A DNA stretch of 64,000 nucleotides from contig JAIOIH010000050.1 of assembly GCA_019912395.1 (NCBI GenBank), positions 52,651-116,650 on the forward strand, in the 5' to 3' direction. Of the stretch, positions 3,655-55,183 are shown piece after piece. The DNA is from Flavobacteriales bacterium (GTDB taxonomy: Bacteria > Bacteroidota > Bacteroidia > Flavobacteriales_F > PHOS-HE28). Numbering within the stretch: the first letter of the stretch is position 1; every line of letters starts with the position of its first letter. The position numbers were made by a program, and so were the translations under genes. Under the pieces are notes generated by a model. It saw only the letters and a list, made by a program, of their open reading frames with translations, was not told the origin of the DNA and made no database searches.

Positions 3655-3950
3655 TGTCCATGTCGCATTGCGTGTCCGGTTTTCCAGGATGTAGGGGGAC
3701 CGGAGGGTTGAGCGTACGTATCCTTGTTGCCACCTGTGCGAAAACCAGAGTGTTGCAAGTTGGCACGCTTGCCCGGGGACGGAACCCGTATTTCCACTAG
3801 TTCGTCCGGGAAGATCGTTCCCGTTTTGAACAGGGGTCGGCCTTGTCCGGGGCTTCCATTGCCCGCGCCAGATCAGCTCGGCGACCACGCACTGGCCACG
3901 CACATCTCCATTCCCCCCTTCCTCTTCCCCGGGGCCTCCTCGGATCGGCC

Positions 3951-9128: not shown

Positions 9129-10982
9129 TCACCCACGCTCCACGAAGTACATCTCCATCTCCCCCTTGCCCTTGGCCTGCACCTTGCCGCGCGGGGTGAA
9201 TACGAATCCAGGCTCATCCTTCACGCATTGGAAGGTGGCCTCGCTGATGTTCACCTTCCCCGCCTCCCCGGCGCTCTCCATGGCGCTGGCGGTGTTCACG
9301 GCATCGCCCCAGATGTCATAGGCGAACTTCTTCATGCCCACGATGCCAGCGACGACGGAACCCGTATGTATGCCCACGCGCATCTCGAACGCGGGCAGGC
9401 CGGTCTTCTCGCGTGCTGCTTTTCGTGCCGCGATGTACGCCTGCATTTCCAAGGCGGCGCTCACCACACCGGCCGGATCGGTGGACGTGGGGTCCGGCAA
9501 TCCGCCCACGCACATGTAGGCATCCCCGATGGTCTTGATCTTCTCGATGCCCTTGGCCGTAATGATCCGGTCGAAGGCCTTGAAGCAGGTGTCCAGTTCC
9601 TCCACCAGGGCCTGGGCGCTCATCGATGCACTGATGCGCGTGAAATCCTTGAAGTCCGAGAAGAGGATGGTGGCACCGGGGTAATCGCGGGCCATGGCCG
9701 TGCCCTTGTCCTTGAGCTCCTGCGCCACGGAAGCCGGAAGGATGTTCAGCAACAGCCGTTCCGACCGCTCCCGCTCCCGTTGGATCCGGGCACTGGACAA
9801 ACGCATGTGGCGCAGGCGGCTCCACAGTCCACCTGCCAACACCAACACCGCAACACCACTGAAAATGGCAATGTTCCGCCCTTCGCGCTCACTGGCCACT
9901 TCCCCTTGATGGCGCAACTCCTCCTCAACCTGCTGCTTGGCCCTGGTGAGGCTGTCCGCCAATTCGCGCTGTGCAAACTCATGGTCCATCTCCACACGCG
10001 TCATCTCCTGCACCCTGGCCTCCCCGAAGAGCGTATCCTTCAGGGCCACGGACCGCCGGAACATGGCCAGGGCACGGCCATCGTCACCGAGGGCCCCATA
10101 CGCCTTGGACAAGCATTCACACGCTTGCTGCTCGAACGGTTTTGCATGCCTGGCCTCCGCCATGGCCAAGCCCATTCGGCAATAGCGCAAGGCCAAGCGC
10201 GGGTGACCGGCACTGATCTCGTTGTTGCCGTAGATGATGTACACCACCGCCAGTTGCAGCTCGCTGTTCCGGCCCGTCAGGTTGCGGATGCTGGCCTCCA
10301 AATAGGTGCGCGCGGAATCCCAGTTGCCCAATTGCTGCTGGCAAATGCCGAGGTGCATGTCACTGATGCCGATCCAGCCGGTGTCCTGCAAGGTCTCCCA
10401 GATCCGCAGGCCGTGCTTGTGGAACACGAGGGCGTTCTGCGGTTGGCCCCGGTCCTCGTAGAGCGAGCCCATGTTGTTCCAGTACTTGGCCGTTTCCCGT
10501 TGCAGTCCGAGCCGCTGATAGATCTCGCCGCTTCGGCGGTAATAATCCCCCGCCTTCTCATAGTTCTTCTGGAAATGCTGGATGGCGCCGATGTGGTTCA
10601 GCACTTCGGCCAGGCCAAGGTCCTCGCCCCGCCCCTTCTCAACCTCCAGTGCTTGATAGAGTACCGTCAGCGCCCGGTCGTTCTCACCCAGCAATTGAAA
10701 GAGGACGGCCTTGCGCCGCAAAAGCCTACCGATCGCTCGTTGATCACCGTCCACGTTCGCAACGACCAAGGCCGAATCCAGCATGAGCACCGACCGATGG
10801 TACAGGCCCGCGTCCTTCAAGCCGTCCGCTTCGGCCATCAAGCTTTGCCATGTGGGGGCAGGATCCGAGGTGCGCGACCATACCGGCGTTACGGCCAATA
10901 GCACCAAGGCGAGCAAGGCTGCGCGGAGCACGGTGAGCCTTGCGTCATCCCGACACATCGCCGACCCATACTGCTCAAACAT
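9129..10982 (-). CDS. TPR-repeat sensor fused to class III adenylate/guanylate cyclase (paralogue of 1696..3654)
   Basis: The ORF spans 9129..11084. Likely starts are ATG 10982 or 10958, ahead of the hydrophobic LRAALLALVLLAVTPVWS. Cyclase motifs: ILFSDFKDFT, KTIGDAYMCVGGLP, GIHTGSVVAGIVG, WGDAVNTASAME. The C-terminus GKGEMEMYFV is shared with the other copy. Confidence 0.9.
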   Translation of the reverse strand: MFEQYGSAMCRDDARLTVLRAALLALVLLAVTPVWSRTSDPAPTWQSLMAEADGLKDAGLYHRSVLMLDSALVVANVDGDQRAIGRLLRRKAVLFQLLGENDRALTVLYQALEVEKGRGEDLGLAEVLNHIGAIQHFQKNYEKAGDYYRRSGEIYQRLGLQRETAKYWNNMGSLYEDRGQPQNALVFHKHGLRIWETLQDTGWIGISDMHLGICQQQLGNWDSARTYLEASIRNLTGRNSELQLAVVYIIYGNNEISAGHPRLALRYCRMGLAMAEARHAKPFEQQACECLSKAYGALGDDGRALAMFRRSVALKDTLFGEARVQEMTRVEMDHEFAQRELADSLTRAKQQVEEELRHQGEVASEREGRNIAIFSGVAVLVLAGGLWSRLRHMRLSSARIQRERERSERLLLNILPASVAQELKDKGTAMARDYPGATILFSDFKDFTRISASMSAQALVEELDTCFKAFDRIITAKGIEKIKTIGDAYMCVGGLPDPTSTDPAGVVSAALEMQAYIAARKAAREKTGLPAFEMRVGIHTGSVVAGIVGMKKFAYDIWGDAVNTASAMESAGEAGKVNISEATFQCVKDEPGFVFTPRGKVQAKGKGEMEMYFVERG

Positions 10983-11167
10983 GGCGCAAAAGGTAGGCAC
11001 GGACCGGTGGATCCGTGGCCGAATACATGCCAAAGGACCGCTTGGGCCCCAACGAACCGGACAACTCCAATGCATGATGTACAAGGTGTACTTCCCTTGA
11101 CCTTCGCCAATGCCGGGAACCGTTCCCGGAGCATTTATTATACCTTGACCCTGAAAAACCCACCTCG

Positions 11168-12029: not shown

Positions 12030-12872
12030 TTGAACGCATTCCCAATATCCCATGGGCCACTGAGCATGAAACCGAGCAATGACAGCAATGCCCGTGATGC
12101 ACAGGGGAAGAACCCGCCGACGTACGGCCTGGTCCTCTCCGGGGGTGGTGTGCGCGGCGCGGCACATATCGGTGTGATCAAGGCGCTGGAGGAACATGGC
12201 ATACGGCCCGAATACATCGCCGGGGCCAGCTCCGGCGCCATCGTAGGGGCCTTTTATGCGGCGGGGCACGGCTGGGAGGAGACCTTGGATTTCTTCCGGG
12301 GCATGTCCATTTTTACATGGGGGAACTACGCCCGCGGCAAACCCGGAATGCTCGATGCGGACAAATTCCGCAAAGGGTTTGAGAAATACTTCCCGGGGGA
12401 CCGGTTCGAGGCACTGAAGAAGAAGTTGTTCGTTGTCGCGTCGGACCTCATCAAAGGGCGCTCCCGGGTGTTCCAGGAAGGCCCGCTCATCCGTACGCTC
12501 CTCGCCTCCTCTGCCGTGCCGGGGGTGTTCTCTCCCGTGGTGATCGACGGCTCGCTGTACTCGGACGGCGGCATCACCAACAACTTCCCCGTGGAGCCGC
12601 TATTGGCGACCTGCGACCGGATCATCGGGGTGTTCGTGAACCCGCTGAAGCAGGTGTCCGCCAACGAGCTCCGCTCTTCCTTTGCGGTCCTGGAGCGTGC
12701 CTTTTCCATGGACCGTACAAGCCATTCCATCCGGAAGTTCGATGACTGCGACCTGGTGATCAGCCCGGAGAGCCTCGCGGCCTTCGGCACGTTCAGCACC
12801 CAACATGTGGACGAGATATTCCGGATCGGGTATGAGGCCGCCCTGCGGAAATTGGAGGCGTACGAGCAGTGA
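12030..12872 (+). CDS. patatin-like phospholipase
   Basis: Oxyanion motif SGGGVRG, nucleophile elbow GASSG, and catalytic Asp context YSDGGI. The start could instead be ATG 12066. Confidence 0.9.
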   Translation: MNAFPISHGPLSMKPSNDSNARDAQGKNPPTYGLVLSGGGVRGAAHIGVIKALEEHGIRPEYIAGASSGAIVGAFYAAGHGWEETLDFFRGMSIFTWGNYARGKPGMLDADKFRKGFEKYFPGDRFEALKKKLFVVASDLIKGRSRVFQEGPLIRTLLASSAVPGVFSPVVIDGSLYSDGGITNNFPVEPLLATCDRIIGVFVNPLKQVSANELRSSFAVLERAFSMDRTSHSIRKFDDCDLVISPESLAAFGTFSTQHVDEIFRIGYEAALRKLEAYEQ

Positions 12873-13085: not shown

Positions 13086-13523
13086 ATGATCCGATCGAGC
13101 AAGGCCATTTGGAAGGGAAGCGGCAAGGAAGGCGGCGGCCTGTTGACCAGCACCAGCGGCGTATTGAAGGACACGCCCTATTCCTTCACCACCCGCTTCG
13201 TCAGCGAGGACGGCAAGGCGGGCACCAACCCCGAGGAACTCATCGCGGCCGCACATGCGGGCTGCTTCACCATGAAGCTCAGCTTCTTGCTTGGCAACGC
13301 AGGCCACACGCCCGATGAACTGGACTGCACCTCCGAGGTGAAGCTCGGTCCGGTGGAAGGCGGTACGGGCATCGTCGGCATCCATCTGGTGTTGAAGGCC
13401 AAGGTCAGCGGCATCAGCCAAGCGGACTTTGATGCCTGCGCCGCGGATGCCAAGGTGAACTGCCCCGTCAGCCAGGCGCTGAAGGCCGTGCCGATCACGC
13501 TGAGCGCAACCTTGGCGGGCTAG
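13086..13523 (+). CDS. osmC: OsmC family peroxiredoxin
   Basis: 145 aa, collinear with my recollection of E. coli OsmC (WKGSGKEGGG..., GTNPEELIAAAHAGCF, CPVSQAL). Both conserved Cys residues are present. Confidence 0.9.
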   Translation: MIRSSKAIWKGSGKEGGGLLTSTSGVLKDTPYSFTTRFVSEDGKAGTNPEELIAAAHAGCFTMKLSFLLGNAGHTPDELDCTSEVKLGPVEGGTGIVGIHLVLKAKVSGISQADFDACAADAKVNCPVSQALKAVPITLSATLAG

Positions 13524-13845: not shown

Positions 13846-14652
13846 ATGGCACAGATCCTCATCCCCACCGACATGAGCGAAGGTTCCCGCACGGCGGTCC
13901 TTTTCGCCTTGAACGCCTTCGACACCGAGAAGGACCAATTCACCTTGCTGCTCTCCATCGGTGATACGCCCAGGCCCAACCTGTTCCCGGAGTTCATCCA
14001 ATATGTGAAGCGACAGGCCCACGAGGAGCTGGATGCCTTTGTGGCCCAGATCCGTAACGCCCACCCCGGAAAGACCTTGAACCTCCGCGGCGTAGTGGAG
14101 AACGGCAGCGTGTTCGCGGTGATCGAGGGCTTTGGCCTGAACAACCCGGTGGACATGGTGGTGATGGGCACGCGCGGCGAAGGCGGAGCACTGAAATGGG
14201 GCAGCAACGCCGAGGTGGTGGCGCGGAACGCAAGCGGCCCGGTGATCGTGGTGCCCCCGGAGTGGAAAGCCGGACCGATCGAAAAGATCCTCTATGCGGA
14301 CGACCGCGAGGAGGTGGACAACCTGAAGACCCTCCTCCCCCTGGTGCAGCTCGCCAAACACTATGACGCCGGGATCGACTTCGTACACGTGAGCAAGGAA
14401 GGGGTGGTCCGCGAGCCCGATCCGGGATCGGCCGGCCGTTCCGATATCTTCAAAGGGATCAAGACCAGCAACGCGACCACAATGGGGACCACCGTGACCG
14501 AGAACCTTGCCCAGCTGGTGGATGGCGGGGGCTATGGCATGCTGGCGATCATGCACCGCCGGCTCGGTTGGCTGGACGCGCTTTTCCACCGCAGCGTGGC
14601 CAAGCGGATGGCCCTGAACACCACGGTGCCGCTGCTGGTGTTGCACGAATAG
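13846..14652 (+). CDS. tandem-domain universal stress protein (UspA family)
   Basis: MAQILIPTDMSEGS... followed by VVMGTRGEGGALKWGSNAEVV (the G-x2-G-x9-G(S/T) ATP-binding type motif). A second Usp half ends in VPLLVLHE. Paralogous to 38151..38957 and 48377..49180. Confidence 0.85.
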   Translation: MAQILIPTDMSEGSRTAVLFALNAFDTEKDQFTLLLSIGDTPRPNLFPEFIQYVKRQAHEELDAFVAQIRNAHPGKTLNLRGVVENGSVFAVIEGFGLNNPVDMVVMGTRGEGGALKWGSNAEVVARNASGPVIVVPPEWKAGPIEKILYADDREEVDNLKTLLPLVQLAKHYDAGIDFVHVSKEGVVREPDPGSAGRSDIFKGIKTSNATTMGTTVTENLAQLVDGGGYGMLAIMHRRLGWLDALFHRSVAKRMALNTTVPLLVLHE

Positions 14653-14951: not shown

Positions 14952-16085
14952 ATGAATAGTGACAGAGCCCTTCTCTTTCTACCGGACATCAGTGGGTTCA
15001 CGCGCTTTGTGGAACGCACGGAGATCGATCACGGGCAGCACATCATCAGTGAATTGATCGAGCTGCTGATCGATGAGGACAAGTTGGGGCTTACGGTCGC
15101 GGAAGTAGAAGGCGACGCGGTGTTCTTCTATTCGCCGGACGCCATTCCCTCGGCCGAAGCGCTTGTTGATCAATGCCGACGGATGTTCTTGCGGTTCCAT
15201 GGCCATTTGCGCCGCTATGCGGATGAACGGATCTGCGATTGCGGAGCGTGCAGCACAGCGGAAAAACTGACGGTAAAATTCGTTGCACATGCAGGGCCCA
15301 TTCGTTCGATAACCGTGCATGGCCGCACCAAACCGTTCGGTGTGGACGTGATCCTTGCGCACCGCTTGCTGAAGAACGATGTGGCCGGAAGTGAATATGC
15401 ACTGCTCACGGAAGCCCTGGTAGCCGAAGGTTCCTTGGATCCCCCGGAAGGGATCACGTCCATGCCCGATGGCGTTGCGACCTACGAGGACCTGCCGCCT
15501 GTTCCCTACCACGCCGTGGATCTTTCCGGCCTGCATGCGCAGGTGAAGGACCATCAACGGATCAAAGCGGAATTGCCACGCGCTGCAACACCGATGGTAA
15601 TGCAACGCCGGATCACAGCACCCGATAAACTCGTCTTTCGCATGTTGATCGACCTCGATGCCCGCTCCCACTGGGATGCACTTGCTACACGGATCGATCG
15701 CCCGGACACGCATGTGAACCGGCCGGGATCCCGCCATACCTGCGTGCTTCCCGTAGGTAGCATGGACCTGGAAACGATCTCTGCACTTGATGCACAAGAC
15801 GGAATGGAATATGTGGAACGCGCCTTGAACGTACCTTTCATTCCCATGGCATACGTCCGTTACCTTGTAAAGCCGGTTGGTGGCGCTACGGAACTTGTCG
15901 CTGAACTACATCTGATCCCCGACTCGATCATCGGTAAGATGATGTTGCCGATGACCCGTTCCCGAATGCGCAAATGGATCTCCGGATCGCTCGACCGCTT
16001 GAAGGTACTGCTGGAAAGTGCCGACAACATTGGCACGCAGACCATTCCCGATACACACGAACAGAAAATAACGACCACCACATGA
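14952..16085 (+). CDS. DUF2652-type nucleotidyl-cyclase-like domain fused to an SRPBCC/START-like domain
   Basis: The N-terminus LLFLPDISGFTRFV...VAEVEGDAVFFY mirrors the two metal-Asp contexts of the genuine class III cyclases in this window (ILFTDFKDFT...KTIGDAYM). The C-terminal ~150 aa (RITAPDKLVFRMLIDLDARSHWD...) resemble an SRPBCC ligand-binding fold. Both family names are recalled, not searched. Confidence 0.7.
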   Translation: MNSDRALLFLPDISGFTRFVERTEIDHGQHIISELIELLIDEDKLGLTVAEVEGDAVFFYSPDAIPSAEALVDQCRRMFLRFHGHLRRYADERICDCGACSTAEKLTVKFVAHAGPIRSITVHGRTKPFGVDVILAHRLLKNDVAGSEYALLTEALVAEGSLDPPEGITSMPDGVATYEDLPPVPYHAVDLSGLHAQVKDHQRIKAELPRAATPMVMQRRITAPDKLVFRMLIDLDARSHWDALATRIDRPDTHVNRPGSRHTCVLPVGSMDLETISALDAQDGMEYVERALNVPFIPMAYVRYLVKPVGGATELVAELHLIPDSIIGKMMLPMTRSRMRKWISGSLDRLKVLLESADNIGTQTIPDTHEQKITTTT

Positions 16086-16333
16086 CCCAACCAAACACCG
16101 GTACCCCAGTGACCACACCAGAGGCGCTTGCCGCCAAGAAAGCCGAAAAGAAAAAGAAGAAGTCGGCGAAGAAGTTGAAGAAGCTGAACACGCTTCTGGA
16201 CGCAGCCGGAGCGGGAAAGCAGTTGGGCATCTCGGACGTCAATCATTTGGAGCTCGTGAAAGCCGTTTCAGAAGTTGAAGATGGCCTGAAGCGCATCCGC
16301 AAGCTGTTAACACAGGACCGAACGACAGCATAG
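16082..16333 (+). CDS. small Lys-rich hypothetical protein (83 aa)
   Basis: The internal ATG at 16082 overlaps the upstream stop as ATGA (16082..16085). Sequence: MTQPNTGTPVTTPEALAAKKAEKKKKKSAKKLKKL... The long ORF 15974..16333 upstream of this ATG overlaps the preceding CDS. Confidence 0.55.
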   Translation: MTQPNTGTPVTTPEALAAKKAEKKKKKSAKKLKKLNTLLDAAGAGKQLGISDVNHLELVKAVSEVEDGLKRIRKLLTQDRTTA

Positions 16334-16352
16334 GTCGATCACCCTCCACACC

Positions 16353-17042
16353 ATGGATCAACAAGACACTGACGGTTTGCAGGCCTCGAGCACGGATGCT
16401 GAACAATCCGAATTGAGCAAAGCGGAAAAGAAAGCCCGAAAGAAGGAGAAGAAAGCGCGGAAGAAGAAAGAGAAGGCGGAAGCAAAAGCTTTGAAAAAAG
16501 CCACGAATACCGAACGCGGGATTGAGACCATGTTCCGCACGGCTGGCAAGAACCACATCCAGCTCAGTCAGATCGCGGACAACAAGGCGAACATCATGCT
16601 CACCATCAATGCGCTGATCATCTCCGCAAGCTTCACCGGCCTCTTGCCCGAGACCGGCCTGCATGCCGAACTGCGCTTACCACTCTTTCTGTTGATGGGC
16701 GTCTGTTTTGTGAGCATGTCCTTCGCTACCGTATCCACCCTTCCGAAGGTGACCAAAGGGATCACCACGCGTGAGGAGTGCGATCGAAAAGAAGGGAACT
16801 TGCTCTTCTTCGGGAACTTCCACGCCATGGAACGTGATCAATATGAAATGGCCATGGCCGATATGATGAAGGACAGGGAATTCCTGTACGGCAGCATGGT
16901 GCGGGACCTGTACTATTTGGGCAAGGTGTTGGCCAGAAAATACACCCTGCTGCGCACCTCCTACCTGGTCTTCCTTATCGGCTTTACCGCAGCTGTGCTC
17001 TACGGCGTCTGGGCTGTTGAAACTGCAGGGCATGTGCATTAA
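16353..17042 (+). CDS. PycTM-like (DUF5706 / Pycsar-effector-domain) membrane protein with Lys-rich N-terminal tail
   Basis: GIETMFRTAGKNHIQLSQIADNKANIMLTINALIIS, NLLFFGNFH, FLYGSMVRDLYYLGKVLARKYTLLRTSY, plus 3 predicted TM helices. This matches my recollection of the DUF5706 domain that is usually fused C-terminal to HD domains in Bacteroidota. It starts 19 nt after the preceding gene. Confidence 0.65.
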   Translation: MDQQDTDGLQASSTDAEQSELSKAEKKARKKEKKARKKKEKAEAKALKKATNTERGIETMFRTAGKNHIQLSQIADNKANIMLTINALIISASFTGLLPETGLHAELRLPLFLLMGVCFVSMSFATVSTLPKVTKGITTREECDRKEGNLLFFGNFHAMERDQYEMAMADMMKDREFLYGSMVRDLYYLGKVLARKYTLLRTSYLVFLIGFTAAVLYGVWAVETAGHVH

Positions 17043-17384: not shown

Positions 17385-17765
17385 ATGGTAGATGCAACGT
17401 TTCTTACGCCCCTTGTGCTCTTGCTCCTCCGGATCATTGTTGCGATCGTCTTCTTCTCCAGCGGTAAAAGCCACGCAATGGATCCGGTGGAACGGGGAAA
17501 GCGTGTGGACCTATCACCCCAAGTGACCCGCATCTTGGGCATCGCTGAGATCCTCGCCGCACTGTCGATCGCCTTCGGGATCCTGCCGCAATTGGGAGCC
17601 GCAGTGGTCATCATTGTCATGTTGGGCGCGATCCAGAAAAAGCTTTTCGTGTGGCACACCGGATTCTATGCGGACAAAGGCTACGGATGGCATTATGACC
17701 TCATCTTCCTCATCGCTGCACTCGTGATCATTGCGACCAATGGAGGCGCTTACGTACTTACTTGA
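17385..17765 (+). CDS. DoxX family membrane protein
   Basis: 126 aa with 4 hydrophobic helices. LLRIIVAIVFFSSG is a typical DoxX N-terminal motif. Confidence 0.7.
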   Translation: MVDATFLTPLVLLLLRIIVAIVFFSSGKSHAMDPVERGKRVDLSPQVTRILGIAEILAALSIAFGILPQLGAAVVIIVMLGAIQKKLFVWHTGFYADKGYGWHYDLIFLIAALVIIATNGGAYVLT

Positions 17766-17779
17766 AAAGAAGTTGAAGC

Positions 17780-19519
17780 ATGAACGTTTCGGAACAATTG
17801 CTCCAGATGTTGGTCAACGTTGGGGTAACTAATATTTACGGCGTTACCGGCGATGCGCTGAACTTCCTGGTGAAAGCCATTGAGGAGCGCGACGATGTGA
17901 ATTGGATCGCTTTCAAACATGAAGGCAACGCCTCCTTTGCCGCCTTTGGTGATAGTGGGACATCCGGTAAGCTGGCCGTGTGCGCTGGCACCGTTGGGCC
18001 AGGTGCACTGCACCTGATCAATGGATTGTACAATGCTAAAAAAGAACGGACCGCTGTAATAGCGATCACCGGTCAGGTACCACTCAAAGTGCAAGGCACG
18101 AACTACTTCCAAGAAGTGGACCTGACGAAGGTCTACGACGATGTCTGCGCCTACCAAGCCATTGTGAGAACGCCCGAGGAAGCGCCGATGGTCATGCAGC
18201 GAGCGTTGCAGATCGCCATCAGCCAGCACACCGTTTGTCGGATCGAACTCGCAGCGGATGTCGCGGGAATGAAGGCCGCCAGTGGAGAAATGGTCCACCC
18301 GATCGTTCATTCCGATGCCATCCTGATGCCCGGGGCCGCTTCCATCCGAAAAGCTGCGGATGCGATCAACGCGGCGGAACGCATCGGTATTCTTGCCGGC
18401 CATGGTTGTCGTGAAGCACGTGATGCGGTTCTTCAATTGTCCAAAAAGCTGAAGGCACCGATCACACATACGCTCAAAGCCTCCGATATCTTCGATCACG
18501 ACACTGAGAACGTCGTGGGGTTGACGGGTCTTATCGGAAATCCGTCGGGCTACAATGCGGTGATGAAATGCGATCTGCTCTTGATGCTCGCCACCGACTT
18601 CCCGTACATGGAGTACTTGCCGCACAAGACCCGGAGCATACAGGTCGACATCCGTCCGGAGAACATTGGCAATCGTACGGCGGTGGATATCGGTGTACAC
18701 AGCGACATCAATGCATTTGTGGACGCCCTCCTGCCCATGGTCGAAGAGAAAGCGGACCGCTCCTTCCTCGATAAGCTCACCGAAAGTTTTGCCGAGTACC
18801 GGAAGGGCAAAGAGAAAGAGGCTTCGCCTGAGCGCGACGGCGAACCGCTGCATCCGCAGATATTCGCCGACTTGATCAGCAAGCACGCATCCGATGATGC
18901 CATCTTCACGATCGAGACGGGTACTTCCGCCATCTGGGCGGCGAACCATATTTCATTTCACAGCGGTCGAAGGATCATCGGCTCGTTCAACCACGGATCA
19001 ATGGCTGTGGGGCTACCTGCGGCCATGGGCGCACAAATGGCGCATCCGGGCAGAGAGGTATGGTCGATCTCCGGCGACGGTGCCTTCAATATGGCCATGC
19101 AGGACTTCATTACAGCCGTGCGCTATGACCTCCCGGTGAAGATCCTTGTGCTGAACAATTCCCAGTTGAGCTTCGTGAAATTGGAAATGGAGGAGGTGGG
19201 CCTGGCACCAGCGCTCGATGCATTGCACCAAGAGAACATGAATTTTGCGGACTATGCGCGTCTCTGCGGCGGAGAAGGCATTCGTGTGGAGCATGCGGAG
19301 GACATCGAAGCGGCCATCCTTATGGCCAAACGCAGTAACAAGCCATTCATCATTGACGCAGTGGTGAGCAGCGGTGAGATCGCCCTACCGCCGCATATCG
19401 GGATCAAGGAGATCACAGGATTCGGCACCTCGAAAGCGAAGGAGGTCCTACAGATCATGACCGGCGACAAGGATCAATGGGAGAATATGAAAAATGAACT
19501 CAAAGCCTGGTTCGATTGA
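17780..19519 (+). CDS. poxB: pyruvate dehydrogenase (quinone) / pyruvate oxidase, thiamine-diphosphate dependent
   Basis: Collinear with my recollection of E. coli PoxB: IYGVTGDALN, AVCAGTVGPGALHLINGLY, LPMVEEKADRSFLDKL, GSFNHGSMA, and the TPP motif GDGAFNM...LNN. Confidence 0.88.
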   Translation: MNVSEQLLQMLVNVGVTNIYGVTGDALNFLVKAIEERDDVNWIAFKHEGNASFAAFGDSGTSGKLAVCAGTVGPGALHLINGLYNAKKERTAVIAITGQVPLKVQGTNYFQEVDLTKVYDDVCAYQAIVRTPEEAPMVMQRALQIAISQHTVCRIELAADVAGMKAASGEMVHPIVHSDAILMPGAASIRKAADAINAAERIGILAGHGCREARDAVLQLSKKLKAPITHTLKASDIFDHDTENVVGLTGLIGNPSGYNAVMKCDLLLMLATDFPYMEYLPHKTRSIQVDIRPENIGNRTAVDIGVHSDINAFVDALLPMVEEKADRSFLDKLTESFAEYRKGKEKEASPERDGEPLHPQIFADLISKHASDDAIFTIETGTSAIWAANHISFHSGRRIIGSFNHGSMAVGLPAAMGAQMAHPGREVWSISGDGAFNMAMQDFITAVRYDLPVKILVLNNSQLSFVKLEMEEVGLAPALDALHQENMNFADYARLCGGEGIRVEHAEDIEAAILMAKRSNKPFIIDAVVSSGEIALPPHIGIKEITGFGTSKAKEVLQIMTGDKDQWENMKNELKAWFD

Positions 19520-19551
19520 ACCATCAACGACACTCCGCCAGTGTGGTAACC

Positions 19552-19929
19552 ATGAGCTTGGAACAGAACAAACAGAACGCGATCGCCTTTTACCGCATGG
19601 CCTACGAAGGTGATCCACGCGGCGCCACCGAGCGGTACATCGGCAAGGAATACATCCAACACAACCCCGGCGTAGCAGATCGCACCCAAGGCTTCATCGA
19701 TTACTTCGAACGCATGCAGCGGGAGTATCCGGAGAAGTCGATCGAGTTCGTGCGTAGCATCGCGGAAGGTGATCTGGTAGCGCTACACACCCACCAGATC
19801 TGGCCCGATAACGATCAGTACATCACCATGGATTTCTTCCGCTTTGATGTGAACGGAAAAATTTGCGAGCACTGGGATTCCATTCAGCAGATACCCAAGG
19901 AGTCCGCGAACCCGAACACGATGTATTGA
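19552..19929 (+). CDS. SnoaL-like / NTF2-fold protein
   Basis: The ORF spans 19516..19929, with a probable start at ATG 19552 (MSLEQNKQNAIAFYRMAYEGD). This is typical polyketide-cyclase SnoaL-like N-terminal helix logic. Confidence 0.75.
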   Translation: MSLEQNKQNAIAFYRMAYEGDPRGATERYIGKEYIQHNPGVADRTQGFIDYFERMQREYPEKSIEFVRSIAEGDLVALHTHQIWPDNDQYITMDFFRFDVNGKICEHWDSIQQIPKESANPNTMY

Positions 19930-20000: not shown

Positions 20001-20318
20001 ATGAAGAACTTGATAAATTGGGATGCGCTAGAAGATAGAGTTCCGCAACATGCGCTGGTGGCAAACGTGGACTTGGTCATCATGCGATATGACGATAGTG
20101 TGTCGGTGCTCTATGCCCGTTGCCTCCACCGAGGAGCACTCATGGCCGATGGCTTCGTGCAGGGCGACAACCTGATCTGCGGCTTACACGGATGGGACTA
20201 TCGATACGCTACTCGAGTCTCTGAATACAACAATAAGGGCACCTCGAAGTACCTCAAGGATCAAAAGAACCAGCCCATCCGAACGTCCACCGTGGCATCC
20301 ACATCGCTTACCGCATAG
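20001..20318 (+). CDS. Rieske [2Fe-2S] domain protein, apparently 3'-truncated paralogue of the N-terminus of 33421..35025
   Basis: CLHRGALMADG...CGLHGWDY retains the CxH...CxxH ligands. It aligns with 33421..35025 up to ...SEYNN (about residue 77), then diverges. The tail overlaps the convergent gene by 58 nt. It may be a decaying gene. Confidence 0.55.
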   Translation: MKNLINWDALEDRVPQHALVANVDLVIMRYDDSVSVLYARCLHRGALMADGFVQGDNLICGLHGWDYRYATRVSEYNNKGTSKYLKDQKNQPIRTSTVASTSLTA

Positions 20319-23300
20319 GAGCCTTGGAGCACCACCATGTTGAACGGGCTGATGTAGAGCCCGCCGCCGAAGGACCGGTGCCAGCCATGCTCGTCCGTGC
20401 CGTCCACCCAGACGCGGCCCGCATCGGCAAAGCCGAGGACCCCGATACGGAAAGGCACCAGGCCATCCCGATTGTTCAACACGTCCACGCGAAGCTCCGC
20501 ATTCATGTACGCGTTTGAATTTCCGGCGAAACGGGTACGCCGCATCCCCCGCACCGTTCTGCGCCCACCAATGGTCGCGGCCATCAGTGGATCGATAGTG
20601 CCATCCCGCCGATCCACTCCTCCCCGCAGGGCAAGCACAGTGCGTGTGGGCAGCCGTATCGGGATGTAGAGTGCGAGCTCCGCACCCCCGCCCGGAATGT
20701 CGTACCCCCGCTGGAGCTCCCTGTCGTAATTCAAGTGGGCGTTGAAGCGCACGCCCCTCCCCGGATCAAATTCCTGGTCCACATTATTCAGCTCGTACTC
20801 CAGGTGCAGGCCGGTGTAATCCACGCTTTGCGGCGTTCGGCCCGTTTCCGTTATTTCCGTACCGCGCAGGAACCCATTGCTCGCACCCAAGTATGATCCC
20901 ATGATCCGGAAGGTGTGTACATCATGCAGGGTGATGCTGAGGTAGGGCTTCCATTGCACCAGGTCCACACGATACTGATATTCCGCTCGGTCCGCCGGTT
21001 CTTCGGTGTGGTTGCCGTAGCCGAAGAAATTGTAGTTGAAATCCGGTGCGAGCAGATCCAGTTCCGTGCCCGCTCCCCACCGGCCCAACACTTCGTTCAC
21101 CTGCCCCCGGTACTTCAAGAAATAGGCCCCGGAAAGTCCGGCATAGCTGGCCACCAGCCTGTGCTTCCACTTGTAGGGGTCCACCCGGAACCCTTGCCGC
21201 GTATAGTTGAAACCAGCACCCAGGAACAGGCCATCATCCGGGTTGTACCCCACATTGATCAACGGCATGATCCGATCGTGTACAAAGGAACCGCGATCAT
21301 ACTCCAACGCGTCCTTCACCTTATGCACCACAATGTGCGTTTCACCCCCGGTCTTGATCTTGTTGGCCTTCTTTCCCTTGGTCGCCGTTTCATACACCAC
21401 CGTTCGGCGGGAAGGACCGCGCACATGCGACTTGTCCTGGATGCGGTCCTTTTCCACGCCCCCCACGATCCGCACCGTGATGCTGCGCTTCACATCGCCG
21501 TCCACGCGGTATTTGTCGTTCCCTTCCAGGCCGTAGATCCGGATCTCCTTCGTTTCGTTCCGGTGGAAGCGACGATGGTACATCCGCTTGTCCTCCACCT
21601 TTTTGCCCTTCTTGAGGGGATGGACGTTCACTACCACATCGTCCCCATCGCGCAGCACTTCGAAGATCTCGTCATCGTCGGTGCCCACCACGTCCACATT
21701 CCGTGCAAGGTCCTTGTAGTACCGCTCCGCAATGCGTTCCAACCCATCGCGCCGCCCCTTCAGCCCGGCCTCGATCCGTGCACCGTGCAGCGCACGCGCC
21801 GTGTCGGGAAAGCAGGCCAAGGCTTCCTCGATCGCCGCATCGGTCAGTTCCGTTCGCATGCTGTCCACGATCTGCTTCCAATCCTTCCACTCCAGTTGCG
21901 TGAGGTATGCGCGATCCAGATAGCGCGCATTGTAATTCTGCCCCGCAATGTCCCGGATGTCCGGACCGAAGCTTTGGAATTTCCGCATGGCCCAGCGCCT
22001 GTTGAGGATGTTGGGCAGGATGCCGTTCTGCGTGAAGAAGGCCTGATCGCGGTCGCGGGGAATGGGCTTGTACACGGTCTTCCCCTTTTCCTTGAACTTC
22101 GCCCAACGCCATTGATCATCGTGGCGGTCCCAATCGCCGATCACGTTGTCCAATAGCCGCGCTCGCAACAACGCACGCTCGTCCACCGCATGCCCTTGAT
22201 GGCTTTTGATGGCGTCGATCACTTCACCGGAACTCACCATTTCGGTGCTCCCGCCCAGATTGGGGCGATCGCTCCAATCCCCGTCCGTTCGCTCTTCCAA
22301 CAAGCAGACCGTACCGCCGAAAAAGTCGTCGAACTCACCGAGGGCGCGCTGGTGCGGAACATGCACCAACTTGCTGTCGAGGTAGGGAACACCCACCGCC
22401 CGTGCCAGTGGCGGGATCGCGATCGCGGCATACGGGTTCGAAGCCGCAATGCCGTCCGAGACGAAGCTCTCCACGATCGTTCCGCGCAATTCGGGTGTCA
22501 GCGCATTGGCCGGGTACTTCTTCACATCGCGCAGCACGTACTCGTGGCCATCAGCAGCCTTCAGGCGTAAGGACCGGGTTTGCATTCCGCCGCCCATCTT
22601 CTCCGGCACCGAGCCCCCATGGAGCGTGTCCAGGAGAACATTCCTCACATCCACGGGAGCGGTCCACAGGTCGCGGTACAAGGATCCGAAGAACACTTGC
22701 TTCATCCAGGAGGCCTTCAGATCGGGATTCGGTACGGCGGTAACAATTGGTGGCGGTGCTTGAGCGGGCCAGCTTTCGGGCGCTACGAAACGGGGTGGGA
22801 TGGGCGGCAACACGCGGGAGAACACCGAGGCTGTTCCACCGGTGACCGTGAAGTAATCGATCTGCACGGAGCCATCCGCCTGGATCCGGAGCCGTGCGAA
22901 ACCACGCTCGGAAAGGACAAGATCACATTTCGCCGTGCTTCGCATGAAATCCGCCTTGGAACCGGATCCGCTCAGCACGTGGGCCACTCCATCGCGCTCC
23001 ACGTATTGCAGGCCATGTTCATGCCCGGCCGCGTAGATGAGCCCCGGGTACTGCTTGAACTGTTCCAACAGGGCCTTGCGCATCCCGCGGTACTCCACAT
23101 GCGCAACGTCCTGCACATCGCCCAGTAACTTGCGGTACAAAGGATAGATGCTGCCCACTATGGGAAGTGGCACGTATGCGTTCTTGTTCAATGCAGTGAG
23201 CGGGAACAGATGGTCCGTCCACGGAAAATGCCCGCCATGATTGCCCTCGCTGTACATGGGATGGTGCCCCGCCACGATGATCCTCTTGTCCCTGGCATCC

Positions 23301-23914
23301 TTCAGCTCCTCCCGCAATTCCGCCATCACATCTTCCGGGGTGGACGCCCCGCAGCCATCCTTGTCGCCCACGGGTTTCCGGTAGTGGTGCAGCCACCATT
23401 GCGTGTCCAACAACACCAGCACCGCATCCTTGCCCATCTTCACCGTGACCGGTCCGGGGCAACCGCCCCCCGGCAAGTAGGAATCCTTGCCCAGTTCGTC
23501 CTCCACAAAGCGTTCCTGGCGCTGCACGGCCTTCCATCCGTTCTTGCCCCCTTGCTCCCAGTCGTGGTTCCCCGGAATGAAGATCGCACGGACATCCCGG
23601 TCCTTCACCACATCGATCTGCACTTGGATCCGGGCCTCATCGGCGGCGCGCATCGGGTTGTCCTTCTTGTGCAAACCGCGCGGGTAGATGTTGTCACCCA
23701 GGAAGAGCACGGTCCTGTCCGGGGTGCGGTCGTGCTGTAGCAGGCTGTCCAGCAAACGCAATACCGGTGCGCTGTGGTCCTCACCGACCTCACCGGCATC
23801 GCCGATGAGGTAAATGGTATGCGATGCCGATGGCGGCTGGGCGATCATCGGTGCACTCCAGGCGAATGCCGCGAGGATCGGAACGAGGAAAGCAATGCGG
23901 ACCTTGTTCATCAT
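20261..23914 (-). CDS. calcineurin-like metallophosphoesterase fused to a large C-terminal outer-membrane-type domain
   Basis: The ORF spans 20261..24073. The probable start is ATG 23914 (MMNKVRIAFLVPILAAFAWS), which overlaps the upstream stop as ATGA. Phosphoesterase motifs: IGDAGE, LGDNIY, PGNHDW, AGHHPMY, GHEHGLQ. The C-terminus ...VDVRMGWFF ends in aromatic residues as in OM beta-barrels. Confidence 0.8.
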   Translation of the reverse strand: MMNKVRIAFLVPILAAFAWSAPMIAQPPSASHTIYLIGDAGEVGEDHSAPVLRLLDSLLQHDRTPDRTVLFLGDNIYPRGLHKKDNPMRAADEARIQVQIDVVKDRDVRAIFIPGNHDWEQGGKNGWKAVQRQERFVEDELGKDSYLPGGGCPGPVTVKMGKDAVLVLLDTQWWLHHYRKPVGDKDGCGASTPEDVMAELREELKDARDKRIIVAGHHPMYSEGNHGGHFPWTDHLFPLTALNKNAYVPLPIVGSIYPLYRKLLGDVQDVAHVEYRGMRKALLEQFKQYPGLIYAAGHEHGLQYVERDGVAHVLSGSGSKADFMRSTAKCDLVLSERGFARLRIQADGSVQIDYFTVTGGTASVFSRVLPPIPPRFVAPESWPAQAPPPIVTAVPNPDLKASWMKQVFFGSLYRDLWTAPVDVRNVLLDTLHGGSVPEKMGGGMQTRSLRLKAADGHEYVLRDVKKYPANALTPELRGTIVESFVSDGIAASNPYAAIAIPPLARAVGVPYLDSKLVHVPHQRALGEFDDFFGGTVCLLEERTDGDWSDRPNLGGSTEMVSSGEVIDAIKSHQGHAVDERALLRARLLDNVIGDWDRHDDQWRWAKFKEKGKTVYKPIPRDRDQAFFTQNGILPNILNRRWAMRKFQSFGPDIRDIAGQNYNARYLDRAYLTQLEWKDWKQIVDSMRTELTDAAIEEALACFPDTARALHGARIEAGLKGRRDGLERIAERYYKDLARNVDVVGTDDDEIFEVLRDGDDVVVNVHPLKKGKKVEDKRMYHRRFHRNETKEIRIYGLEGNDKYRVDGDVKRSITVRIVGGVEKDRIQDKSHVRGPSRRTVVYETATKGKKANKIKTGGETHIVVHKVKDALEYDRGSFVHDRIMPLINVGYNPDDGLFLGAGFNYTRQGFRVDPYKWKHRLVASYAGLSGAYFLKYRGQVNEVLGRWGAGTELDLLAPDFNYNFFGYGNHTEEPADRAEYQYRVDLVQWKPYLSITLHDVHTFRIMGSYLGASNGFLRGTEITETGRTPQSVDYTGLHLEYELNNVDQEFDPGRGVRFNAHLNYDRELQRGYDIPGGGAELALYIPIRLPTRTVLALRGGVDRRDGTIDPLMAATIGGRRTVRGMRRTRFAGNSNAYMNAELRVDVLNNRDGLVPFRIGVLGFADAGRVWVDGTDEHGWHRSFGGGLYISPFNMVVLQGSYAVSDVDATVDVRMGWFF

Positions 23915-24903
23915 GGCCACATGCTCTTTGGCGGAACAACGAAGAATCCCGCACCGAAATAGAATGCGTTGTTCACCGTGTTGGACAGGATCACCTCGCC
24001 GCGTTGCGTGCCGTGGTCCGTAACAAGCGAGAGGTCCAGGTTCATGTTCAGCCCGGCATCGGCCCCGAACCAAAGCCAGTCGTGGATCTCCCGTTCATAG
24101 CGTACGAATACACGGAGGTCGGACCGTTCAAGGTAGTACACCCCGTTAAGGCCCTGCTCTTGCAAGCGGATGTTGTAGTTCGTGCCCTCCACCTTTACAC
24201 CGGCCAATAGGCGGTTGCTCTTACCGAGTTCGTAGTACACCCGGGCATGCGCGGGAAGCAGCACATCCACTCCCCAATGCCGATCGATGGACCGCTGATA
24301 CGCCACCACCGGAAGGAATGACGCATGGCCCAGGGTGTAACTGAACGCCACCCCGAAGCCGAACGAAAAGCGTGGATCGCGCTTCACACCATAGACCGCC
24401 GCCACTTCGTGCTTCAGTGCATTGTTCTTGGAGGCGAACGTTCCCGTACCATCATCATTCATGCTGGAATTGGTGCGCACCACCAAGTACTTGTTCCCGA
24501 TGAACGGCTTCACGATGTAGAGGCCGGCCTGTATGGACCGAAGCTGCTTTTCATGCAACAACGAAAGCACCTGGCTCCCGTATCCGCCCGAATTGTCCAA
24601 TTCGTAGTTCTCCGTGGCATAGCCCAAGCTCATGTTGAGCTTGAAGTTGCGCCGGATGAACACCGGGAAGCGCAACTTCGAATTGAACCGCGCATTTCTG
24701 CGCACTTCGGTGGTGTAGTCCCCTGATGCCACATCGTTCCGGGTCCCTTGAATGCCGTAGTCCATCATCCTTTCGTAGGTGAGCTCCAAGCCTTTGGGCC
24801 GTGGTTGCCCTTCGATGGTGGGGATGCAGAAAACGGTGGAATCCTGTGCGGCGAGCACACCCCAAGAACCAAGGACCAGAAGGATAGCGATGCCCCTTTT
24901 CAT
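23911..24903 (-). CDS. hypothetical outer-membrane beta-barrel-like protein
   Basis: The ORF spans 23911..24960, with a probable start at ATG 24903 (MKRGIAILLVLGSWGVLAAQ signal peptide). The pattern of alternating hydrophobic residues is typical of beta-strands. It is translationally coupled to the downstream phosphoesterase gene. Confidence 0.6.
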   Translation of the reverse strand: MKRGIAILLVLGSWGVLAAQDSTVFCIPTIEGQPRPKGLELTYERMMDYGIQGTRNDVASGDYTTEVRRNARFNSKLRFPVFIRRNFKLNMSLGYATENYELDNSGGYGSQVLSLLHEKQLRSIQAGLYIVKPFIGNKYLVVRTNSSMNDDGTGTFASKNNALKHEVAAVYGVKRDPRFSFGFGVAFSYTLGHASFLPVVAYQRSIDRHWGVDVLLPAHARVYYELGKSNRLLAGVKVEGTNYNIRLQEQGLNGVYYLERSDLRVFVRYEREIHDWLWFGADAGLNMNLDLSLVTDHGTQRGEVILSNTVNNAFYFGAGFFVVPPKSMWP

Positions 24904-24904
24904 G

Positions 24905-25771
24905 TCAATTCGCGATGGGTTCGTACACCAGTAGACGGCCAGCCCCACCGCGACCTTCACTGGAGATCAGCAGCAGTCCGTCGGGATCGAGATCGAGCCC
25001 TTCGGGTTGGGGGAACAGGGCCCGTTCCAAGTAGGTGGCATCGATCACATTGCCCGTTCCGTTCAACACCACGATCATGCGATCATGGGCCGAAAGCAAC
25101 CAGTAGTTCCCCGTGGTAGGATGAATGGCGATCGCTGATGGCGCAAACCGCATCCCCTTGGTCATTAGTCCGCGCTTGGCCAAGGCCACCTTGATGCTGT
25201 CCAGATGAACGACCAACGCGGGATCGGGATCCAACTCGCCCGTGACCGGATCGAACGCATATACCGCTCGCTGAACGCGTGCATCCAGTCCGCTGCCGGG
25301 ATCGGCCTTGCACGCCATCAACAACCGCTCTCTTCGAACGTCCCAACAGGAACCTTCCACATCATTGCGCCTCGTCAATCCGGTCTTCCAGTGATCCACC
25401 TTCTTCCCGGAACCACCATGGAGGCGATCCACGCGGCCATCGCTTCGGACCGCATAGAGGTGTTCGCCATCACTGGCCACGGATTCATAATCGCCGTTCT
25501 TGTCAAAGTCCATGCTCCCGGTGATCTTCTTGCGGCTGATGTCGAAAATGAACACCTCCCCTTTCTCATCCTGCACCATGGCAATGTGGTCCTTCCGCCA
25601 CCACGCAAGTCCGGAGATCTCACGCATCTCCTTCGGTAGCTCGAACGCTTGTGAAGGCCGGTCCAGCCGATACCCTTGAAATTCCTTGGTTCCGCACGAC
25701 GCTAAGGTTCCAACGAACAACACGACGACTGGAACAAGAGGACGCGATGGAATGAAAGTCATTGGTTTCAT
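24905..25771 (-). CDS. SdiA-regulated-domain / YjiK-like beta-propeller lipoprotein
   Basis: The ORF spans 24905..25915, with a probable start at ATG 25771 (MKPMTFIPSRPLVPVVVLFVGTLASCG lipobox). EISGLAW...GEVFIFD...EGLDLDPDGLLLISSEG resembles the SdiA-regulated family. Confidence 0.55.
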   Translation of the reverse strand: MKPMTFIPSRPLVPVVVLFVGTLASCGTKEFQGYRLDRPSQAFELPKEMREISGLAWWRKDHIAMVQDEKGEVFIFDISRKKITGSMDFDKNGDYESVASDGEHLYAVRSDGRVDRLHGGSGKKVDHWKTGLTRRNDVEGSCWDVRRERLLMACKADPGSGLDARVQRAVYAFDPVTGELDPDPALVVHLDSIKVALAKRGLMTKGMRFAPSAIAIHPTTGNYWLLSAHDRMIVVLNGTGNVIDATYLERALFPQPEGLDLDPDGLLLISSEGRGGAGRLLVYEPIAN

Positions 25772-25861
25772 GTGTCGCAAGGTCTGACTACACCTGACGT
25801 TGGTGATCGTTCCAATATACCACCTGCATAAGCATGTTCGACATACGCTTAAGTTTACACT

Positions 25862-26455
25862 ATGTCCAGAACGGAAGGAACGGTCTCGTCCGATCCAATT
25901 GCGATGGGACCACATGACCTGTCCAAATGGGTTCGTGAGTATACCAGCCAGCTATTACGGTACGCATCAGCGCGTGTAAACGACCGTGCAGTAGCAGAGG
26001 ATCTCGTGCAGATCACGTTCATGTCGGCATGGCAGTCCGTGGATAAGTTCAAGGAACAAAGCAGCCCGCGCACATGGCTGTTCTCCATCCTGAAACACAA
26101 GCTCGCCGATCATTATCGCAAAGCCTACCGCGACCCTGTCATTCACAATAGCAACCTACAGGTTGATGACCGATTTGATGATGATGGTCGCTGGGTACCG
26201 GAACATCGACCCACCGAGAACGACATGCACGAGGCCGATGATGCCGAGGCCATGAACAGGTATCTGGCCCATTGTTTGAAATTATTGCCGGACCATTGGC
26301 GCGCCGCCATTGAAATGAAATACCTGAAAGAACGCGACGCTGAAGCGATCTGTCAGGAGCTGGGCATATCCGTTACCAACTACTGGCAACAGGTACATCG
26401 TGCGAAGGTGAAGCTCCGCGAATGCATCAGTAAACAAGGCGCCGCGCACAGTTGA
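25862..26455 (+). CDS. ECF-type RNA polymerase sigma-70 family factor
   Basis: Region 2 motif AEDLVQITFMSAW...RTWLFSILKHKLADHYRK. Region 4 HTH: AEAICQELGISVTNYWQQVHRAKVKLRECI. Confidence 0.88.
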   Translation: MSRTEGTVSSDPIAMGPHDLSKWVREYTSQLLRYASARVNDRAVAEDLVQITFMSAWQSVDKFKEQSSPRTWLFSILKHKLADHYRKAYRDPVIHNSNLQVDDRFDDDGRWVPEHRPTENDMHEADDAEAMNRYLAHCLKLLPDHWRAAIEMKYLKERDAEAICQELGISVTNYWQQVHRAKVKLRECISKQGAAHS

Positions 26456-33409: not shown

Positions 33410-33420
33410 ACATACCCCAC

Positions 33421-53824: not shown

Positions 53825-53937
53825 TACGACCACAATGATGTGTACAAAATGAAGCGACAGAGTATCGGCAGATGCCCCCTATGGTTCTATGTTCGCAACG
53901 ACCACTCAGGTCATCCATTCCAAGAACTCAGCCGCAC

Positions 53938-55173: not shown

Positions 55174-55183
55174 GCAGCTATTC

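Follow-up and report, generated by a model that had tools for sequence, protein, structure and literature searches.

We analysed a 64,000-nt window from a Flavobacteriales bacterium (contig JAIOIH010000050.1; "the window" is this whole stretch of DNA), in which a gene for a predicted class III nucleotidyl cyclase lies in one operon arrangement with a gene for a membrane protein of the PycTM family. Pycsar anti-phage systems combine a class III-type pyrimidine cyclase with a transmembrane (TM) or TIR effector activated by cyclic CMP (cCMP) or cyclic UMP (cUMP), and PycTM is currently understood only as a phage-defence effector. The two genes are the first and the third of the following set:

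Gene 1: 14952..16085, plus strand, 377 amino acids (aa), DUF2652 class III cyclase-like domain plus SRPBCC/START-like domain
Gene 2: 16082..16333, plus strand, 83 aa, Lys-rich helical micro-protein
Gene 3: 16353..17042, plus strand, 229 aa, HD-less PycTM / pJV1-SpdB3-family membrane protein with three TM helices (3TM)

The three genes lie on one strand. The TGA of gene 1 and the ATG of gene 2 share four nucleotides (ATGA, 16082..16085), which suggests translational coupling, and the stop of gene 2 is 19 nt apart from the ATG of gene 3. The reading that we favour, tentatively and with slightly less than even confidence, is that a ligand-regulated gene 1 cyclase controls gene 3 via its nucleotide product, within a phosphate/polyphosphate envelope module. 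An earlier sequence-only reading of the window had called the three open reading frames (ORFs) with their overlap and gap, two metal-binding Asp motifs and a C-terminal SRPBCC/START-like domain in gene 1, a DUF5706/PycTM domain with three TM helices in gene 3, and genes for a universal stress protein (Usp) and OsmC upstream; it had also stated that PycTM is usually fused to an HD domain in Bacteroidota. All of these descriptions were borne out, with domain E-values well outside the range of chance.

Gene 1 matched DUF2652 (PF10851) in Pfam at E=2.5e-43, with 147.3 bits against a cut-off of 22.1 and the full model (1-118) covered. The Pfam match to Polyketide_cyc2/SRPBCC (PF10604) reached 22.4 bits, under the 27.4-bit cut-off, and no match to Guanylate_cyc (PF00211) was found at E<=0.1. 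The cyclase-like domain occupies approximately residues 1-165 (nt 14952-15446) and the SRPBCC domain approximately residues 205-360 (nt 15564-16031). The family numbered 1825 proteins at E<=1e-3, most of which are ~360 aa long and carry PF10851 together with PF10604. An AlphaFold2 model was built on 119 homologues (predicted local distance difference test score, pLDDT, 91.2; predicted template modelling score, pTM, 0.85). In this model, the N-terminal half has the class III nucleotidyl-cyclase fold with both metal-binding Asp residues. In the PDB, Foldseek matched this half to the class III cyclases CyaC (1wc1, E=3.3e-8), Ma1120, Cya2, CyaB and Rv1900c (probability 1.0, target-normalised TM-score 0.64-0.74), and the C-terminal half to PYR1, PYL1, PYL2, PYL3 and PYL9, which are abscisic-acid receptors, and to TTHA0849 (probability 1.0, target-normalised TM-score 0.62-0.74). 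The cyclases escaped detection when the PDB was searched by sequence only: gene 1 alone gave nothing, and the DUF2652 profile gave SRPBCC proteins only (2d4r, E=0.016). The cyclase relationship therefore needed a fold search. A hidden Markov model (HMM) made from seven class III cyclase catalytic domains matched DUF2652 proteins directly, down to 1.4e-7.

Two class III cyclases encoded on the minus strand of the window (9129..11084 and 1696..4083) served as references for aligning the catalytic residues. These two are paralogous TPR plus class III cyclase proteins, whose catalytic domains matched each other in phmmer at E=4e-89. The local hhalign comparison of the gene 1 profile with them reached E=7e-4 with a probability of 26%, i.e., a low-confidence alignment, and the global comparison against only these two gave a meaningless probability of 0.3% with a sensible topology. 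The motifs LFLPDISGFT (residues 8-17) and EVEGDAVFFY (residues 51-60) place D12 (PDISGFT) and D55 (EGDA) at the two metal-binding Asp positions. E51 aligned with the specificity Lys position, K109 with the phosphate-binding Arg of 'RxGIHTG', and R138, which is at least 90% conserved, with the transition-state Arg. K127 fell at the specificity Asp position in one of two hhalign runs, and the other run put that Asp in a gap. D12, E51, D55, H83, C95, C97, C100, K109, H113, K127, H137, K141 and N142 were invariant in the 119 homologues, as were G259, H262, C264 and E289 of the SRPBCC domain. The insert H83 ... C95-x-C97-G-A-C100 (nt 15198..15251) is absent from canonical class III cyclases and may be a zinc (Zn) knuckle, a Zn-binding site or a redox-sensing site.

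Compared with the canonical class III cyclases CyaC, Cya2, Ma1120 and Rv1264, gene 1 shares the fold and the DIxGFT and GDA motifs and, according to the low-confidence alignment, has a basic residue for the phosphate-binding Arg and keeps the transition-state Arg. Unlike them, it lacks a PF00211 match, has, in the same alignment, Ile for the transition-state Asn and E51 in place of the specificity Lys, may use K127 at the specificity Asp position, contains the H..CxCGAC insert, and has an SRPBCC partner instead of the usual sensor domains. Ramakrishnan et al. argued in 2016 that DUF2652 is cyclase-like and called the Bacteroidetes members, with their Glu / Lys-or-Arg specificity pair, guanylate-cyclase-like (PMC4886424). 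Gene 1 shares with the proteins of that study the Pfam family, the metal-binding Asp residues and the specificity pair. Its cyclase-like nature is confirmed but not new.

Gene 3 matched PycTM (PF18967) in Pfam at E=1.3e-32, with 112.8 bits against a cut-off of 27.2, and the motifs quoted for it earlier were found. In PADLOC, it matched the PycTM model PDLC02364 at 5.6e-17 over model positions 20-153 of 160, and also CBASS '2TM effector' models. A disordered acidic N-terminus is followed by a Lys-rich helix (approximately residues 20-52) and the PycTM domain (approximately residues 56-229). No HD domain was found in gene 3 by Pfam, and a purpose-built HD HMM matched nothing in the window. Its structure model (pLDDT 78.7) consists of helices only, three of them long and hydrophobic. 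Foldseek against a PDB copy that holds no PycTM or PucTM structure returned no solved relative at E<=0.001, only BAR-domain noise, and a sequence search against solved structures gave chance matches only.

Relatives of gene 3 numbered 2943 at E<=1e-3. The nearest were four stand-alone proteins (67-71% identity), followed by Bacteroidota fusions of HD (PF01966) and PycTM of ~396 aa, which account for most of the 120 best relatives and are named 'Pycsar system effector family protein' at NCBI. In the TM half, the identity of these fusions to gene 3 is 45-58%, with RGIETMFRT, ADNKANI and NLLFFGNF in common; HD is entirely missing from gene 3. The Lys-rich stretch before RGIETMFRT is kept in the fusions as the linker between HD and the TM domain and precedes the TM domain in all members; by its sequence conservation, the tract is a family feature and not a peculiarity of gene 3. 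A 2026 preprint on the Pucsar system named the PycTM family the pJV1-SpdB3 3TM family and described PucTM as a hexameric cylinder with a channel ~15 Å wide (bioRxiv 10.64898/2026.08.12.744502). The namesake SpdB3 works in a plasmid DNA-spreading (DNA-translocating) complex, and its expression is toxic to E. coli (PMC4447253).

We surveyed 80 loci with DUF2652-SRPBCC genes in species-representative genomes and scanned them with our own HMMs for PycTM, HD, cyclase and SRPBCC. A PycTM-family gene was immediately adjacent to the DUF2652-SRPBCC gene in 10 of the 80, against ~0.04 loci expected by chance on our own estimate for single-copy genes in genomes of ~4000 genes. The ten belong to Flavobacteriales, Chitinophagales, Bacteroidales, Calditrichia and Longimicrobiales. 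HD is absent from two of them, L006 and L038, whose positions coincide with L001 and L005, respectively. The other eight carry the full HD-PycTM fusion, placed in tandem downstream (L057, L068, L083), in tandem upstream (L033) or convergently (L025, L040, L047, L064). It had been supposed that the HD partner is here replaced by a cyclase-fold protein; these eight loci indicate that HD and DUF2652 coexist, and they speak against replacement in that form. Among HD-less relatives of gene 3, all seven confirmed cases that were looked up (L001, L086, L087, L005, L170, L172 and P0125/P0003, the last by shared contig) sit in an operon with DUF2652-SRPBCC, as in the window. In a neighbour-joining tree of the TM domain, the HD-less proteins form one clade and one separate lineage, and the DUF2652-adjacent HD fusions are spread over at least five lineages. 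Three further candidates for HD-less PycTM (L088, L171, L169) proved to be HD-PycTM genes that a frameshift or the gene calling had split, and were excluded from the HD-less count.

The micro-protein of gene 2 does not share this distribution. It matched no family in Pfam or PADLOC, and among 1.84 billion representative proteins HMMER found two convincing relatives and one marginal one (1086 aa, E=1.9e-4). In L001 and L086, the two closest loci, orthologues of 80-85 aa are found at the corresponding position and likewise overlap the gene 1 counterpart by 4 nt, and the ratio of nonsynonymous to synonymous substitution rates (dN/dS) of 0.25-0.38 indicates a real gene. On this sequence distribution, gene 2 is a clade-specific addition. 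Since it is confined to a narrow clade, the conserved unit is the pair and not the trio that had been proposed. We considered gene 2 as an HD remnant or as a duplicate of the N-terminus of gene 3, but a weak resemblance to the linker and first helix of PycTM had an hhalign probability of 5%, partly due to Lys-rich low complexity, and neither origin is claimed. A 68-aa ORF in the Longimicrobiales locus L005 was considered as a counterpart and is not homologous to gene 2.

The pair recurs within a wider set of genes, which we found by clustering the neighbours of the 80 DUF2652 loci and searching them against Pfam and, as profiles, against the PDB. The recurrent set comprises polyphosphate kinase (PPK1), three families referred to as c7, c15 and c19, a PAP2 phosphatase, an alpha/beta hydrolase (fused to OsmC in L001) and a Rieske-GltS protein. 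The corresponding genes of the window, with the two upstream genes confirmed by Pfam, are:

c7: 20261..24073, minus strand, outer-membrane protein with a purple-acid-phosphatase-like metallophosphoesterase domain, a middle domain and an Omp85/BamA-like barrel
c15: 23911..24966, minus strand, DUF6268 (Pfam, 6.2e-8), upstream of c7 in the same operon; probably an outer-membrane beta-barrel
c19: 24905..25951, minus strand, SdiA-regulated-like (Pfam SdiA-regulated, 8e-7), first gene of the c19-c15-c7 block; probably a beta-propeller
Usp gene: 13846..14652, upstream of gene 1
OsmC gene: 13086..13523, upstream of gene 1

The c7 protein (~1220-1270 aa) matched Metallophos and ShlB in Pfam, and its profile matched purple acid phosphatase (1war, 5.6e-12) and BamA (4e-5) in the PDB. 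Its translation probably begins at the ATG at 23914, which overlaps the stop of c15 (ATGA) and opens a signal-peptide-like sequence. Its middle domain had no sequence match in Pfam or the PDB; it contains invariant GDWDRHxDQWRW and PIPRDRDQAF motifs, reminiscent of a kinase-type 'DRH' catalytic loop.

PPK1 was present in nine of the ten loci with PycTM adjacency. A four-gene operon of DUF2652-SRPBCC, PycTM, PPK1 and c7-core, in this order, is intact in L170 and L172 and frameshifted in L087; the c7-core is 870 aa long and lacks the phosphatase domain. Where both are in a locus, DUF2652 is always the immediate neighbour of PycTM, while the positions of PPK1 and c7 shift. We also examined 80 metagenome loci with PycTM, all of which are HD-fused or split HD-PycTM except one short fragment. 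Only 46 of these 80 have a flank of at least 3 kb; even so, c7 was the adjacent gene in 35 and c19 in 12. One or the other flanks most HD-PycTM genes, and the counts indicate c7 as the main partner. The placement of c19 between c7 and HD-PycTM was seen in 12 metagenome loci as well as in Fulvitalea axinellae. The fusions thus share the c7, c19 and c15 neighbourhood with gene 3, and c15 recurs beside DUF2652 and PPK1 in L040, L057, L068, L076, L083 and L086. In the window, c7, c15 and c19 lie 3.2 kb downstream of gene 3, and in L086 (the closest long contig) and L001 the PycTM gene is directly convergent with c7. In Flavobacteriales (L057/L076/L083, L053-type), the order is c7, Rieske-GltS, PPK1, c19, c15, DUF2652, HD-PycTM and alpha/beta hydrolase.

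Unrelated canonical cyclases occupy the same position as DUF2652 in some loci. PF00211 cyclases lie beside HD-PycTM in Fulvitalea axinellae, L090, L141 and L157, and two genes away in L130. Class III cyclases abound in these genomes, so this lends modest support to a general cyclase link to HD-PycTM. The neighbourhood link between DUF2652-SRPBCC and PycTM-family genes is real. The Fulvitalea axinellae locus (L173, pFA2, 163101..179607) lies on a 437-kb non-mobilizable replicon, where c7 and c19 diverge from HD-PycTM and the following cyclase; they are annotated as a metallophosphoesterase (c7), a hypothetical protein (c19), a 'Pycsar system effector family protein' and a membrane-anchored adenylate/guanylate cyclase (PF00211). 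Genes for cyclase-TPR proteins recur near DUF2652/HD-PycTM loci (L040, L169, L034).

In the reading that we favour, gene 1 would be a divergent class III nucleotidyl cyclase, probably dimeric, whose activity is probably set by a small hydrophobic ligand, a metal or a redox cue via the SRPBCC domain. It would make a nucleotide second messenger; our best guess is a cyclic purine mononucleotide, because the specificity Lys of adenylyl cyclases is replaced by an invariant Glu. The messenger would, by analogy with Pycsar and Pucsar, control gene 3, a 3TM protein of the inner membrane for which homology predicts a pore-like oligomer. In most Bacteroidota, the N-terminal HD phosphohydrolase domain of the PycTM protein might switch the signal off. 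In the clade of the window, HD would have been lost, the cyclase gene placed in a tight operon with the membrane protein, and the Lys-rich gene 2 added. The pair would act within a module of PPK1, c7, the DUF6268 outer-membrane protein, the SdiA-regulated-like protein and PAP2, with phosphate/polyphosphate handling or envelope homeostasis as the most likely output.

Several points weigh against this reading. A nearly invariant I134 sits at the transition-state Asn position in the gene 1 alignment (hhalign probability 26%), and a protein lacking this Asn may catalyse a slow or different reaction. Throughout the DUF2652 family, cyclase activity is a prediction. The loci with adjacency are not phylogenetically independent; we counted ~7 independent lineages. 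Furthermore, 70 of the 80 DUF2652-SRPBCC loci had no PycTM gene within 6 kb, and DUF2652 was adjacent to PycTM in none of the 80 HD-PycTM metagenome loci, suggesting that the coupling is not obligatory or works in trans. The Gemmatimonadota loci L010 and L031 have DUF2652 beside c7 without PycTM, and it may be the wider module, and not PycTM as such, to which DUF2652 is linked. PPK1 was not found in the 64,000 nt of the window. The HD domain compared with cyclic-nucleotide phosphodiesterases gave matches below threshold only (PDEase_I at 7.8e-4, under the cut-off; PDE5/PDE10 at E~0.1).

Some of these points are also explained if the genes are co-regulated and no signalling takes place between them. 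That is, DUF2652-SRPBCC could be a metabolic enzyme acting on a lipid/polyketide-like ligand or a phosphorylated substrate, or a pseudo-enzyme, which merely shares an envelope/phosphate regulon with PycTM. We regard this as the strongest competitor, unlikely but worth serious weight. The apparently missing transition-state Asn fits it, the conserved H83/C95/C97/C100 insert and the polar SRPBCC pocket (H262, C264, E289) suggest a chemistry of its own, and both the DUF2652 genes that are not beside PycTM, which are the majority, and the c7 neighbours without PycTM in L010 and L031 also fit. However, shared regulation does not readily account for DUF2652 being the constant immediate neighbour of PycTM while PPK1 and c7 move, for every confirmed HD-less PycTM gene being in an operon with DUF2652, or for unrelated canonical cyclases taking the same position beside HD-PycTM. 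The invariant metal-binding Asp residues argue against a pseudo-enzyme.

A Pycsar-like abortive infection system, in which phage infection activates the DUF2652 cyclase and its cyclic nucleotide kills the infected cell by opening the PycTM pore, is improbable. Pycsar and Pucsar do pair class III cyclases with the 3TM family (bioRxiv 10.64898/2026.08.12.744502), and the locus resembles them in its class III-fold cyclase gene with intact metal-binding Asp residues, in the tight operon with a PycTM (PF18967) membrane protein, and in a gene 3 that matches PycTM in Pfam and spans nearly the whole PADLOC model. The toxicity of the namesake SpdB3 when expressed in E. coli (PMC4447253) and a toxin-antitoxin pair (PIN/PhdYeFM) beside the related locus L170 also fit cell killing. 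Unlike a Pycsar cyclase, gene 1 is a DUF2652 protein with SRPBCC and a Cys3-His insert, and it matched no PADLOC family, PycC models included, at E<=1, whereas the generic TPR-cyclase of the window matched PycC at 5.3e-15. No relative of gene 1 or gene 3 was found in 50,697 phage records or in 2.9 million viral contigs; relatives on plasmids numbered five, all on large, non-mobilizable replicons. The neighbours are PPK1, PAP2, Omp85, OsmC and Usp rather than defence genes, and except for a generic patatin match no defence gene was found among the neighbours scanned; the micro-protein is a further difference from Pycsar and Pucsar.

The rate of evolution points in the same direction. Immune cyclases evolve fast and associate with conflict effectors (bioRxiv 10.64898/2026.08.12.744502), whereas both families here are slowly evolving and syntenic, with a PycTM branch that is 45-58% identical across Bacteroidota in the TM domain and nearly always lies beside c7; the DUF2652/PycTM branch is neither fast-evolving nor tied to conflict effectors. 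As a part of the reading that we tentatively favour, the locus is best explained as a chromosomal, vertically inherited signalling pair and not as a mobile immune system. The suggestion of a role in defence or stress is therefore only half retained: defence is disfavoured by the missing PycC match, the absence from phages and the PPK1 and outer-membrane phosphatase neighbours, and stress stands only in the sense that it is closer to the evidence.

The gene context permits a more specific proposal, which we consider about as improbable as abortive infection. The PycTM pore would be the inner-membrane part of a polyphosphate conduit, with PPK1 making polyphosphate, c7 as the outer-membrane part, gene 2 binding the polyanion and DUF2652-SRPBCC gating or regulating the passage. 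Equally doubtful is its fuller form, in which a large non-immune PycTM/SpdB3 branch that includes gene 3 has its pore opened by a cyclic nucleotide from the ligand-gated DUF2652-SRPBCC protein and, with PPK1 and c7, exports or mobilises polyphosphate that is bound by the poly-Lys tails of gene 2 and of the gene 3 N-terminus. The recurring four-gene operon, PPK1 in nine of the ten adjacency loci, the acid-phosphatase domain and BamA-like barrel of c7, and the Lys-rich tract directly before the TM domain in all members are compatible with this, as are the hexameric PucTM with its ~15 Å channel (bioRxiv 10.64898/2026.08.12.744502) and the SpdB3 complex, which translocates DNA, likewise a polyanion (PMC4447253). 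However, the proposal draws wholly on gene context, the window is without PPK1, membrane-adjacent Lys-rich segments are common and fit the positive-inside rule, and neither the HD domain nor the cyclase is obviously needed. We know of no precedent for dedicated polyphosphate export. If the conduit existed, a gated polyanion channel with a housekeeping role would have given rise to the Pycsar effectors as its weaponised descendants.

The cyclase-like nature of DUF2652 (2016), the PycTM family and the pairing of a cyclase with a 3TM protein in Pycsar and Pucsar were already known. The 2016 study treated nearly all DUF2652 proteins as single-domain, with one SRPBCC fusion and one HD-phosphohydrolase neighbour (Hymenobacter swuensis; PMC4886424), whereas SRPBCC fusion is here the rule (>1800 proteins), and the association with PycTM, PPK1 and c7 was unrecognised there. 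In the literature searched, we found no paper on the association of DUF2652-SRPBCC with PycTM-family proteins, on a large HD-PycTM branch that appears to be non-immune and goes together with PPK1 and an outer-membrane acid-phosphatase/Omp85 protein, or on the HD-less operon form, which is always in an operon with DUF2652-SRPBCC. Nor did we find there a mention of DUF5706, the former name of the domain, or a paper linking Pycsar to polyphosphate kinase or to the Bacteroidota HD fusions; the link of the PycTM family with polyphosphate kinase appears undescribed. From the context, 'Pycsar system effector family protein' seems a misleading label for thousands of genes, which look like parts of a conserved module with a physiological rather than an immune role. 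DUF2652, a predicted cyclase family, gains a candidate target in PycTM and a setting of PPK1, an outer-membrane acid phosphatase and phosphate/polyphosphate. If cyclic-nucleotide gating of the 3TM family were ancestral and physiological, it would show an immune effector recruited from a housekeeping channel.

Other parts of the window and of the surveyed loci were also inspected. An Rfam scan found no RNA families in the window, and a sigma-70 promoter/terminator scan was uninformative, Bacteroidota promoters being outside its coverage. A patatin-like phospholipase gene (12030..12872, plus strand) matched CBASS phospholipase-effector models in PADLOC at 1.6e-13; the match is probably generic patatin homology, since no cyclase or CD-NTase partner lies beside it. 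The only defence-like island (53872..56173, plus strand) lies 37 kb away and has a low GC content (0.46 vs ~0.6 elsewhere); with its genes for a C5 cytosine DNA methylase and an HNH endonuclease, it is a probable horizontally acquired restriction-modification island. In 11 Flavobacteriaceae loci, DUF2652 lies in the same block of housekeeping-looking genes, whose flanks were identified by eye only, with no profile search, as a DNA polymerase III delta'-like gene and phosphoglycerate kinase.

Between gene 3 and c7, the window carries genes for DoxX, a thiamine pyrophosphate (TPP)-dependent, pyruvate-oxidase-like enzyme and a SnoaL-like protein (17385..19929, plus strand), and a stand-alone Rieske ORF of 105 aa (20001..20318, plus strand) abuts the 3' end of c7. 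Because PycTM and c7 are directly convergent in L086, this block of DoxX, TPP-enzyme, SnoaL and Rieske-fragment genes looks like an insertion in the window. The 105-aa ORF may be a remnant of rearrangement; a full-length Rieske-glutamate-synthase-like gene, which elsewhere adjoins c7 and PPK1, lies 13 kb from it (33136..35025, plus strand).

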